From a virus: a DNA stretch of 40,026 nt. Made by a program: the position numbers and the translations under genes. Location of the stretch: positions 1-40,026 of IMG/VR virus record IMGVR_UViG_3300016644_000071, one strand, 5' to 3'. This document shows, piece after piece, positions 26,601 to 28,578 of this stretch (the stretch's first letter is position 1; the number at the start of each line of letters is the position of its first letter). The notes below the pieces were generated by a model that did not search any database, was not told the DNA's origin, and saw only the letters and a list, made by a program, of their open reading frames with translations.

Positions 26601-27538
26601 TTGATTAAATCATTTGTAGAAAGACTTGTAACACCAAATTTTGTAAATTTAGCAGCGAATCCACTTAATATTTTTATTGTTTCAGCTATTGTATAACCAA
26701 ATTCATTGGCATAATTTCCTCTTATTGAAAAATCTGTTGGAGATATTAGTTTATGACCAATCGTAGGATACAGGGGATCTAATATGACTAACGAACCAAA
26801 AGGAATATTATTAGTATTTACATAATCCTCTCCACTAATTGCTTTAGATAACGTACCAGTTCCATTGCTTACTGTATTTTTTAAAAGTCCTGTTTCTAAA
26901 TTTCCAAGTGATTGAGCCTGAGTAAAAGTATATGTCGTTCCAAGTCCGTATAAATCTTTTAAGGCTGGAGGGATAAGAGCCATTTTAGGATTTTCCCATG
27001 TAAAGTTTACTGTGGAATTTCCCACAATAAAGTTAGCATTATCAAAACGCTTCATTATTTGAGCCGCTCTGACCTGTGTCATAGCCAATGATGAAGATAT
27101 ATCAGTTCCAATTGGATTGCCTAATGTGTCATATTTAGTTGCATAAATTTGAGGTAAGAACGGACCAGACATTACCCAGTCAAAGGCGGATAAATAATTA
27201 AAAGTAGGGTTAGGAATCCTGAAGTCACCTGTAATTGAGCTTGCAGGGTTAGGAAATACCGCCTCAGCTAAAGGTGGCAAATTTATAGTACCAATATGTA
27301 ATTCTTCTACTGGTTCATTATCATAATCACCTATCCATATCCGATTATGATCCAGTTTTTTTAATTCTTCAAAATTTCCTATTTTCCTTTTTAAATCAAT
27401 TATGTCTTGGCGGACGTCAATTAGAACTGGTGATACAAAAGACTTTCCATCTTTATCACCAAGTAATGTATATCCTTTATTTATTGGTAATTTACCAGTA
27501 ACAGGAGATATGAAATTATATAAACGATCGTACTTCAT
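23051..27538 (-). CDS. giant mosaic tail fibre (1495 aa) with a C-terminal peptidase-S74 intramolecular chaperone domain
   Basis: Contains AKDAAQD repeats, three perfect 14-aa Ala/Gly/Ser repeats, and a collagen-like run GPKGDKGDTGPQGPVGPAG (DNA 26018-26074). Also has five ~91-aa repeats (one partial), an N/G/T-rich region, and EI|SDNRVKKEIKEID...FGLIAQDI (S74 signature). Confidence 0.85.
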   Translation of the reverse strand: MKYDRLYNFISPVTGKLPINKGYTLLGDKDGKSFVSPVLIDVRQDIIDLKRKIGNFEELKKLDHNRIWIGDYDNEPVEELHIGTINLPPLAEAVFPNPASSITGDFRIPNPTFNYLSAFDWVMSGPFLPQIYATKYDTLGNPIGTDISSSLAMTQVRAAQIMKRFDNANFIVGNSTVNFTWENPKMALIPPALKDLYGLGTTYTFTQAQSLGNLETGLLKNTVSNGTGTLSKAISGEDYVNTNNIPFGSLVILDPLYPTIGHKLISPTDFSIRGNYANEFGYTIAETIKILSGFAAKFTKFGVTSLSTNDLIKSNINGELIQAVQNVDYITPARLNEVIQTITTIAGLLSTLQLAYDSFSATTIAKDAAQDASLAQKTAKDAAQDVTISEIIAKTTAQDAAISSAQTSVTASATTAANSAAAAGASAAAAEASATAAGGSAAAAGASATAAGGSAAAAGASATAAGGSAAAAGASAAAAIAAAAAFIPGPKGDKGDTGPQGPVGPAGTYTVQGPLNLDAQNNLTLKYDSSLGLDVSGNLKLNLTAATNLLGVGTSITALNATNITSGTLSTTYGGTGVTTGLTVLNPANLSSAVTVDKGGTGATTLTSGQLLIGNGTTAVLQSANLAWNNTTNTLSATNISGSGTGLTALNATNITSGTLSTTYGGTGVTTGLTVLNPANLSSAVTVAKGGTGATTLTSGQLLIGNGTTAVLQSANLAWNNTTNTLSATNISGSGTGLTALNATNITSGTLSTTYGGTGVTTGLTVLNPANLSSAVTVAKGGTGATTLTSGQLLIGNGTTAVLQSANLAWNNTTNTLSATNIVGNGSGITGITGASLTGIDYNNLSNKLTFTSPLSINASNAVSIDLSAKQNTLTAATNLLGIGTSITALNATNITSGTLSTTYGGTGVTTGLTVLNPANLSSAVTVDKGGTGATTLTSGQLLIGNGTTAVLQSANLAWNNTTNTLSATNISGSGTGLTALNATNITSGTLSTTYGGTGVSTSNTINNYLFNNTGANHGDNNDFNAITTAGYKFIVGNVNSPSTAYSQYYSWLIGLGINYPVSGTGSYSCQFALPRNTTNPPLSVRYKENNSWTAWTGITASYADNLTSGNKSINGNLSCGGNVLINTTSDYSTNTKLFIQGSSFGYSQPLVRIQQNAGWDGNYALQVVGYSDFGGIRINGADTGNTIYTTGNNNMGFTTNLGNMLFNLNNSERMRIDTAGNVGIGKSPSYKLDVNGDTKVTGYLYNDGNISLQGTIYMTNNRAVTNYWQMYINSSNSNFTFNHYNPGSSINSNWWFNGTQTNTQSEISDNRVKKEIKEIDNPLDKLMLLKPKEYKLCQDKDYNKKFGLIAQDIYETDLNEFVVNNEEEYVANIFAKGTYNNQLIISDKTINNINIDDEIKLVFSNDGENKEYIIDGNDGPFENRYKRRYVKVKSIIDDYTFEISDELDIKEESFLIYGKKVNDFHKLDYHSMYALNIAATQELFKIVQDLKTRI
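24545..25900. repeat. 273-bp (91-aa) near-identical in-frame repeats: three tandem copies (about 25075-25895) plus about 1.3 copies (about 24545-24900), separated by about 174 bp of unique sequence
   Basis: The landmark CCGTA(G/A)GTAGTTGATA recurs at about 24551, 24824, 25271, 25544 and 25817, at spacings of 273, 447, 273 and 273. Identical antisense shadow ORFs at 25095 and 25368 show the DNA identity. Confidence 0.9.
26112..26237. repeat. three perfect tandem copies of a 42-bp GC-rich unit (GCACTAGCACCTGCCGCTGCCGCACTACCACCTGCCGCTGTT), encoding (ATAAGGSAAAAGAS)x3 on the coding strand
   Basis: Units at 26112-26153, 26154-26195 and 26196-26237 read as identical. Degenerate copies flank them (about 26098-26290). 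Confidence 0.9.
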
Positions 27539-28578
27539 GCTGTTAAATGTGTTAATATACTTGCAATCTTATCACTTTCATTAGTGTAATGAGTATCAAT
27601 TAAATTAGATAATTGAGTAAACCAAGCTGTGGTACTGTTATCAATTTCATTAGCAAAATCTACTGGAAATTTAGGTTGAAATTTATAAAAATATACGTCG
27701 CGAGCAAGACGATTAGATAAATAATCTAAATAATATCGGCTCCATTCTTCACTTCCTGTCATTGCAATATTCATAATTCCAAACAATCTAACTGCTGTAT
27801 GTTCTAAACCTGTTTCTGTACCACTACCGTCAAAACTCATATTTCCTATTCCAGTACCAACATCTACTATAACAATTCTATTGGCATTAGGTTTTACAGT
27901 TAACCCTATATTAATTGCTGCTAGAATTGCATCGTTAGCATATTGTCCACCATCACTATAATAATGCCCGTTGAAATTGTGAGCTGGTAGATAAACTGGT
28001 GCAGCACTTGAAGCTCTGCACACATTTACAATACTTTCATTGTTGCCAATAAAATATGCTGGATCATTGAAATTAGAAAAAACAACGTATCTTTTCATAT
28101 CTTCTTCATAAGCAGGAATAACAACAGGAGTTTTTAAATTTGCAAGTGTTGAACTACCAAAATTACTAACAAGAACTTGCTGTAATATATTGTGTCCATA
28201 ATTTGAATCTTCATAAGCCGATCTATAAAAAGAATCATTAGTAGCTATAATTGCAAGTTTTGATAATAAATCAGGTCTATAAGAATCTTGGCTTGCATTA
28301 TGACTCCCTGTTGCAATATCAGCAGCTGTTCTGATAGTAAATATACGTTTTGCATAAGTAGTAAAAAAACTTTCCATCTGATCTTGCGTTTTACCAAAAG
28401 AATAACCAGAAGCAAGTATTGCTCCAATAGATGTGCCGCACATAACATCTACATATTTCCAGAAATCGACTTGTGGTATTCCCCATTGCTGAATGAATTT
28501 TTGCATAAAACGATTAGCACCATAGCCTTTAGTTCCACCACCACAAAAACTAAATATTCTGATTGTATTTGTATCCAT
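27535..28578 (-). CDS. patatin-like phospholipase (347 aa), catalytic motifs intact
   Basis: CGGGTKG (oxyanion hole), GTSIG (GxSxG nucleophile) and SDGG (catalytic Asp). Its stop overlaps the fibre ATG (ATGA). Its start lies 2 nt after the TerL stop. Confidence 0.85.
   Translation of the reverse strand: MDTNTIRIFSFCGGGTKGYGANRFMQKFIQQWGIPQVDFWKYVDVMCGTSIGAILASGYSFGKTQDQMESFFTTYAKRIFTIRTAADIATGSHNASQDSYRPDLLSKLAIIATNDSFYRSAYEDSNYGHNILQQVLVSNFGSSTLANLKTPVVIPAYEEDMKRYVVFSNFNDPAYFIGNNESIVNVCRASSAAPVYLPAHNFNGHYYSDGGQYANDAILAAINIGLTVKPNANRIVIVDVGTGIGNMSFDGSGTETGLEHTAVRLFGIMNIAMTGSEEWSRYYLDYLSNRLARDVYFYKFQPKFPVDFANEIDNSTTAWFTQLSNLIDTHYTNESDKIASILTHLTA

Follow-up and report, generated by a model that had tools for sequence, protein, structure and literature searches.

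A CapV-like patatin phospholipase gene paired with the tail-fibre head in a putative phage of Megaira-type protist symbionts

We analysed a stretch of viral DNA of 40,026 nucleotides (nt), IMG/VR record IMGVR_UViG_3300016644_000071 (hereafter, the window), with a focus on the patatin-like phospholipase gene that it carries on the minus strand at 27535..28578, between the gene for the large terminase (TerL) and that for a long tail fibre. Comparison with related loci indicates that the constant partner of the patatin gene is the N-terminal region of the fibre (FibN), not TerL, and that patatin and fibre head together behave as an exchangeable accessory cassette, not as a core structural requirement. 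From its sequence and predicted structure, the patatin protein appears to be of the single-domain CapV structural type, catalytically intact and active-looking, and to be free of cyclic-dinucleotide control. Our tentative proposal, which we find plausible without calling it probable, is that it is a fibre-cassette lipase, probably associated with the virion, that acts at host contact.

It is an open question how phages get to, and away from, bacteria living within eukaryotic cells. Phages of Rickettsiales symbionts repeatedly carry patatins (phage WO, MAnkyphage, and elements of Megaera and Trichorickettsia), with roles that are putative. The gene described here is already known: it is annotated in the record of the Megaira polyxenophila phage MAnkyphage_25.80 (OP381185.1; George et al. 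2023, Curr Biol 33:1982), a published phage whose host is an obligate intracellular Rickettsiaceae symbiont of protists. The MAnkyphage patatin goes unmentioned in the papers that cite that study. As far as we have checked, the additions made here to the known gene are its cassette behaviour and its relationship to CapV. They turn a vague “virulence gene” annotation into a specific and testable description, that of a CapV-like enzyme that is under selection, separate from the lysis cassette, and part of an optional fibre-head cassette. They also raise the possibility of evolutionary exchange between phage structural modules and an effector family of the cyclic-oligonucleotide-based antiphage signalling system (CBASS).

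Pairing of the patatin gene with the fibre head

The fibre gene (23051..27538, minus strand) encodes 1495 amino acids (aa), and FibN, delimited by tblastn and blastp across loci, is its N-terminal region of ~340 aa (26519..27538, minus strand). A FibN-type gene, with N-terminal 240-340 aa matching, lies directly 3' of patatin in every related locus that reaches far enough, and the association is near-constant overall. Around this pair, we observe several genomic backbones. In the window, a Terminase_6 TerL is followed by patatin, the fibre and, downstream, a P22-type portal; in L014 and L040, the TerL is of the Terminase_3 type, again followed by patatin and fibre, and the P22-type portal downstream has 35% identity to that of the window. 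Another backbone (L042 and the Trichorickettsia locus L008) has Terminase_3, Phage_portal_3, an open reading frame (ORF) of 622-650 aa with no Pfam or PHROGs match, and then patatin, along with a Mu_F/DUF2213 head. The order in L085 is Terminase_6 TerL, P22 portal, patatin, a 53-aa ORF and the fibre.

The pairing with FibN is still seen at 30-37% patatin identity (L053 and, at 30%, L055), and both of the remote FibN homologues that we checked (2/2) have patatin directly upstream. The position on the TerL side is likewise kept at 28-37% patatin identity (L053, L055, L056); at 28% (L056), patatin comes after TerL and one small ORF, and the gene downstream of it is without similarity to FibN. Across 37 non-redundant loci, patatin identity correlates with FibN identity (Spearman 0.78), and its correlation with TerL identity is lower and not significant (Spearman 0.44, n = 18). 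Three loci illustrate how far patatin and TerL can diverge: in L059, L065 and L073, TerL identity is 92-93% and patatin identity is 38-40% (93% and 39%, respectively, in L059). A preliminary description of this DNA, made from its letters alone, had presented the patatin gene as wired between TerL and the fibre. The link to the fibre stands, through FibN, and the link to TerL does not, since the TerL family and the upstream gene vary. The contrary case that it had named, pseudogenised or randomly placed homologues, does not apply to the related phages surveyed here for synteny.

We read the junctions of the gene directly. TerL (28581..30044, minus strand; Terminase_6N and Terminase_6C) lies directly upstream, and 2 nt separate its TAA stop (28583-28581) from the patatin ATG (28578-28576), which has a GAGG 11 nt to its 5' side. 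At the other end, the patatin TGA (27537-27535) and the fibre ATG (27538-27536) share an ATGA overlap (27535..27538, minus strand), and no Shine-Dalgarno-like sequence was seen upstream of the fibre ATG. Both junctions agree with the preliminary description, which did not state that they lie on the minus strand, and its claim that patatin is embedded in the late structural operon holds as well. The ATGA overlap is found in 57 of 64 related loci, a count that includes duplicate contigs, and the spacing between TerL and patatin is as in the window in 22 loci. A scan of 22000-31500 for promoters and terminators gave numbers close to those expected from shuffled sequence (49 promoter-like sequences versus 43 expected, and 4 terminator-like sequences versus 4.8 expected).

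The pair can also be absent. Among the 45 loci from a TerL-anchored search that extend far enough downstream, a number that includes duplicate views of one contig, 37 have patatin directly after TerL. In three contigs from three metagenomes (L060-L062), TerL is 96-100% identical and there is no patatin; the fibre ATG stands in its place, behind the same GAGG-containing leader. The fibre of these contigs retains its first ~17 aa (MKFDPLYHLISPVTGKL) and has nothing equivalent to residues ~27-308 of the window fibre; its shaft repeats are 80-93% identical. The first ~17 aa of the window fibre (MKYDRLYNFISPVTGKL, 27488-27538) are thus kept also where the rest of FibN is missing. Two further loci (L078 and L079) have unrelated genes at the patatin position. 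We considered that patatin might be an essential structural adaptor and rejected this because near-identical phages do without it. The earlier statement that the gene is not an independent moron (a cargo gene) is only half right, for the gene behaves, together with the fibre head, as an exchangeable accessory that is absent beside nearly identical TerL genes.

FibN itself has no Pfam or PHROGs match. The shaft and distal part of the fibre (23051..26518, minus strand) contain tandem repeats of 273 nt that enlarge the fibre (91 aa; 2.9 copies, 97% identical, at 25073-25872, and others that have diverged further), Ala-rich 42-nt repeats (26103-26285), a collagen-like GPKGDKGDTGPQGPVGPAG stretch, and a C-terminal Peptidase_S74 intramolecular chaperone. 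Past FibN, the fibre is conserved only in MAnkyphage and in near-identical contigs, and its shaft repeats occur also in the patatin-less L060-L062.

Fold, host and distribution of the patatin

The patatin gene encodes a single-domain protein of 347 aa, which matches the Pfam family Patatin (PF01734) over residues 10-222 (E 1.7e-20; 74.4 bits against a cut-off of 27.7). The three patatin motifs that had been reported as intact are confirmed: the oxyanion loop G13-G-G-T-K-G18 (GGGTKG), the G48-T-S50-I-G52 (GTSIG) motif with the catalytic serine, and D209-G-G211 (DGG), so that Ser50 and Asp209 form the dyad. In an alignment of 45 sequences that reaches down to 26% identity, G14, S50, G52, D209 and G210 never vary, and 44 of the sequences have K or R at position 17. 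All complete related copies that could be extended to a stop are intact ORFs of ~340-385 aa, except for the distant L076, which was not reconstructed. Patatin is under purifying selection: its ratio of non-synonymous to synonymous substitution rates (dN/dS) relative to the window is 0.09-0.18, and that of TerL is 0.05-0.09. In its catalytic residues, the enzyme is intact, as the preliminary description had claimed. The protein has no predicted signal peptide and no transmembrane segment.

The AlphaFold2 (AF2) model of the protein has a predicted local distance difference test score (pLDDT) of 92 and a predicted template modelling score (pTM) of 0.92, and it adopts the alpha/beta patatin fold, with a Foldseek probability of 1.0 to CapV, plant patatin, iPLA2-beta and PlpD. 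Template modelling (TM) scores are 0.71-0.79 for the CBASS lipase 9KH6 and CapV (8ZR9, 9JEK, 9JEH, 9KEJ), 0.67-0.69 for CapE, 0.62-0.68 for plant patatin, 0.53-0.55 for PlpD, 0.39-0.47 for VipD and 0.29-0.36 for ExoU. When a profile of the 45-sequence family is compared with the PDB, 9WN1 and 9KH6 are matched at 1e-52, AbCapV (8ZR9) at 2e-39 and plant patatin at 1e-31; VipD is matched weakly and ExoU not at all. The PADLOC phospholipase effector PDLC00758 gives a full-length match (E 9e-45), and the NCBIfam model CBASS_lipase matches at E 4e-34 with 118.2 bits, below its equivalog cut-off of 200 bits.

CapV and CapE (8ZR9, 9JEK, 9KH6, 9IOM; PMC12480259) have in common with the window protein the full-length single-domain fold (TM 0.68-0.79), the Ser/Asp dyad and the Gly-rich loop with Arg or Lys. 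They differ in the residues that contact 3'3'-cyclic GMP-AMP (cGAMP) and in having a CD-NTase as neighbour, whereas the window patatin is located in a phage structural operon. In AbCapV, residues F147, K149, D159, E207 and R279 are required for 3'3'-cGAMP binding and filament formation (PMC12480259). A hidden Markov model alignment, which maps these positions by sequence only, places Val166, Ser168, Gly178, a gap and Tyr286 opposite them in the window patatin, and the replacements are widespread in the family (Ser for K149 in 41/45 and Gly for D159 in 33/45, with Tyr, Leu or Ile for R279). We found no CD-NTase in the ORFs scanned, which were the large ones and not every small ORF, or in the MAnkyphage annotation.

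Among the analogues suggested in the preliminary description, CapV is borne out by the fold, and ExoU, Pat1 and Pat2 are remote. ExoU, VipD and Rickettsia Pat1/Pat2 have the patatin catalytic core in common with the window protein and act for an intracellular bacterium on eukaryotic membranes; the fold comparison covered ExoU and VipD, and Pat1/Pat2 are likened here by description. ExoU and VipD carry extra C-terminal localisation or cofactor domains that are absent from the window patatin, and their structural match is poor. Both the fold and the size of the window patatin (347 aa, single domain) led us to reject an ExoU- or VipD-like effector.

Two regions set the window protein apart from CapV: an insertion of ~35 aa (residues 85-120) and a variable loop (residues 245-257) that is modelled with low confidence. 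This loop seems to be a tolerated, and is probably an exposed, insertion site. Some relatives (P0122, P0155 and the copy at 8001-9434 of L085) have insertions of 130-300 aa exactly there, with ~20-aa repeats in P0122 and a Ser/Thr-rich sequence, beta-rich by appearance, in P0155. A gene fusion of patatin and FibN among the long homologues was considered and rejected, P0122 and P0155 being insertions in this loop.

The host is, judging from nucleotide similarity, an obligate intracellular bacterium, a Megaira-type symbiont of protists, because the 3 kb around patatin have 91% nt identity to the phage of Candidatus (Ca.) Megaira polyxenophila, MAnkyphage, and because relatives occur in assemblies of Ca. 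Megaera venefica and Ca. Trichorickettsia. An intracellular host, which the preliminary description had considered as a condition for one of its suggested roles, is thereby supported. The patatin of the window and that of MAnkyphage (UXM65450.1) have 96.8% protein identity, and the annotation of OP381185.1 gives terminase, patatin and tail fibre in the same order and orientation as in the window.

Whether a lipase at this position is unusual, as had been claimed, depends on where one looks. Among 50,697 records of GenBank phages, a close homologue is found only in MAnkyphage, and the only weak matches are in phage WO (22.8% identity, E ~1e-3). In metagenomes, however, the family is matched by 164 proteins in a set of 5.8 billion, with 82 clusters at 50% identity and E below 1e-30, and the gene had already been annotated in MAnkyphage. 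The distant members of the family (28-40% identity) have a guanine-cytosine content of 33-44%.

All host-linked copies are in Rickettsiaceae symbionts of protists. A scan of genome contigs gave two loci in all, one of which is in Ca. Megaera venefica. The other (L010, CAITDW010000226.1) is a patatin-fibre pair with 78% identity that is filed under a “Candidatus Saccharibacteria” metagenome-assembled genome and is probably a mis-binned phage contig. The patatin-fibre pair is also present on L008 (CP112933.1), a phage-like “plasmid” of 57.8 kb from Ca. Trichorickettsia mobilis. This replicon also encodes DnaB, a ParB-methylase, TerL, portal, Mu_F and major capsid protein, and it looks like a phage or phage-plasmid, not an ordinary plasmid. 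A further Rickettsiaceae mobile element with patatin late in a structural cluster is L084 (AP017967.1, the Megaera polyxenophila plasmid pPCS109). Its prophage-like block at 61-82 kb has, in order, a terminase, a head decoration protein and a patatin of 362 aa with 25-28% identity to that of the window, followed by small ORFs that look fibre-like.

Possible roles of the lipase

We infer the timing of expression, the translational coupling, the association with the fibre, the substrate and the site of action in the following scheme. The patatin would belong to the tail-fibre cassette of Megaira-type podophages and not to their packaging module. It would be made late, on the same message as the fibre, whose translation is probably coupled to that of patatin through the ATGA overlap, and the lipase would probably be present in fixed proportion to the fibre. 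The protein may associate with FibN, or be restrained by it, and ride on or with the virion. At host contact, the lipase would then hydrolyse acyl esters in a lipid barrier, which may be the protist vacuole or another host membrane around the intracellular bacterium, or else the bacterial outer membrane. Ordinary bacterial lysis would be left to a separate holin-endolysin-spanin cassette, and the lipase would probably target a membrane that plays no part in normal lysis. Auto-inhibition holds CapV relatives in check before oligomerisation (PMC12480259), which suggests that an unrestrained lipase in the cytoplasm through late infection would be costly.

Several observations weigh against this scheme. 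Patatin alleles of ~80% identity co-occur with FibN types of 43-55% identity, and such mixing of alleles implies that an interaction between patatin and FibN is not strongly allele-specific. Physical linkage alone could explain much of the co-variation between the two, and the loci compared are not phylogenetically independent. Three loci (L074, L075 and L077) have a FibN-like fibre (35% identity) without patatin, so that FibN does not strictly need patatin. The patatin is a bare fold with no recognisable virion-docking domain, and CapV-type enzymes act from the cytoplasmic side (PMC12480259). The AF2 model of FibN is too poor for docking (pLDDT 60, pTM 0.36), and a Foldseek search of the PDB with this low-confidence model returned nothing below E 4.

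A more far-reaching form of the proposal, which we regard as doubtful, is that patatin and FibN constitute a horizontally exchanged “membrane-opening host-range cassette”, in which a lipase of the CapV fold, free of cyclic-nucleotide control, docks on FibN or is gated by it and is borne by the virion so as to breach a lipid barrier in reaching an intracellular bacterium. If true, tailed phages would have their first lipolytic accessory of the tail fibre, the parvovirus VP1u phospholipase would have its counterpart among bacteriophages, and there would be an evolutionary link between CBASS effectors and phage structural modules. The VP1u phospholipase A2 (PLA2) and mycobacteriophage LysB are functional analogies, each being a lipolytic enzyme that works across a lipid barrier (in entry for VP1u and in release for LysB). 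VP1u has a secreted-PLA2-like fold and LysB a cutinase-like fold, both unrelated to patatin, and VP1u is fused to a capsid protein, whereas the window patatin is a separate gene.

The main rival to a fibre-associated lipase is a soluble, unpackaged egress lipase that is made late, is set free or activated as infection ends, and works from within. It would either boost lysis by damaging bacterial membranes or, once the bacterium has lysed, damage the vacuolar or plasma membranes of the protist and so let virions out of the eukaryotic cell. The adjacency to the fibre would then be mere late-operon placement and genetic linkage. We consider this explanation possible, though less than likely. In its favour, CapV and CapE, the nearest relatives of the patatin to have been characterised, attack membranes from the cytoplasmic side (PMC12480259), and the patatin-based lytic cassette that has been proposed for phage WO adjoins the tail module (PMC9203015). 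A single-domain protein with no docking module, dispensable in near-identical phages and found late in the structural cluster of the Megaera plasmid's prophage-like block, would also suit such a role. However, a holin, an endolysin and both spanins are already present in a different transcription unit; patatin moves together with the fibre head from one backbone to another and co-varies with it, whereas lysis genes normally accompany lysis cassettes; and a lipase made without regulation alongside the structural proteins would be liable to kill the host cell too early.

The lysis genes in question form a canonical cassette on the plus strand (3374..4754), outside the patatin-fibre cassette. It comprises a holin candidate of 74 aa with one transmembrane segment (3374-3598), an endolysin (Phage_lysozyme, E 5e-38; 3595-4050), a DUF1064 gene (4038-4346), an Rz-like i-spanin (PHROG E 4e-4; 4349-4582) and a lipobox ORF that overlaps the Rz-like spanin (4512-4754). 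As this cassette is separate, patatin would not be needed for ordinary lysis and would not be the primary lysin, and the suggestion in the preliminary description that it supplements lysis is weakened. The comparison with phage WO is instructive here, since canonical endolysin, holin and spanin are absent from WO and its patatin has been proposed as the lysin (PMC9203015). WO resembles the window in being a tailed phage whose host is a Rickettsiales endosymbiont and in having a patatin of putative function beside its tail genes (PMC9203015). It differs in that a holin-like ORF and an ankyrin protein are the partners of its patatin (PMC9203015), whereas the neighbours in the window are TerL and the fibre and the two patatins have 22.8% identity. 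A substitute for the primary endolysin, as proposed for WO, was rejected for the window patatin, given the complete lysis cassette elsewhere in the genome.

Another explanation, which we judge improbable, is that the enzyme matures or modifies the fibre, as an acyl-transferase or esterase acting on FibN or as an assembly factor, and that membranes are not its target. Patatin-fold enzymes include transacylases, and the tight gene pairing, the apparent translational coupling and the joint presence or absence with FibN would fit such a role. On the other hand, a C-terminal Peptidase_S74 domain already provides the fibre with a chaperone, some FibN-like fibres come without patatin, and we know of no precedent for a patatin as a fibre-modifying enzyme.

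Very improbable is a CBASS-derived function in defence or counter-defence (superinfection exclusion, abortive infection or a cyclic-dinucleotide decoy), for which CBASS lipases as best family matches (CBASS_lipase, PADLOC and the PDB profile) would speak, but against which stand the score of 118 bits under a 200-bit cut-off, the replaced cGAMP-binding residues of AbCapV, the lack of a CD-NTase in the large ORFs scanned and in the MAnkyphage annotation, an invariant dyad that would be superfluous in a pure sponge, and a late-operon placement that is atypical of prophage defence genes. Two specific candidates of this kind were rejected: membership of the CBASS effectors, on the same score, residues and missing CD-NTase and on the TerL and fibre neighbours, and a cGAMP sponge or decoy, given that Ser50 and Asp209 never vary.

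Wider genome and neighbouring genes

The first 20 nt of the window (1-20) are repeated at 40005-40024, and this end repeat indicates that the window is a circular, complete contig of ~40 kb. The MAnkyphage genome aligns with ~74% of the window at 68-90% identity. The window is a distinct genome, and the ~10 kb that do not align include a transporter gene of the major facilitator superfamily (MFS) and a gene with an HD_4 domain.

Downstream of the fibre lies the P22-type portal gene (20351-22162), and three small ORFs are found between the two (22198..22997, minus strand). Homologues of 22782-22997 and 22198-22569 (34-57% identity) occur 3' of the fibre in other backbones as well. At 17483-17986 (minus strand), the window encodes an Ala/Val-rich product of 167 aa whose orthologue in OP381185 is labelled “lytic transglycosylase”. 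This label looks doubtful, as the product has no Pfam or PHROG match. In two of the related loci, small ORFs give faint Pfam matches to Tad2, an anti-Thoeris sponge (L059, 920-1279; L008, 2690-2827).

The transporter gene (MFS/Sugar_tr; 427 aa, 5556-6839, minus strand) sits at the junction of the plus- and minus-strand arms and looks like cargo. The surrounding region, 4753-7014, is without nucleotide match to MAnkyphage, which has a DUF4065 gene and a RelE/CopG toxin-antitoxin pair there. The HD_4 gene (31187-31711, minus strand) lies within another stretch that does not align to MAnkyphage (30000-33147). It encodes a protein of 174 aa with a domain of the HD hydrolase type of RelA/SpoT, and could be a phage alarmone hydrolase.

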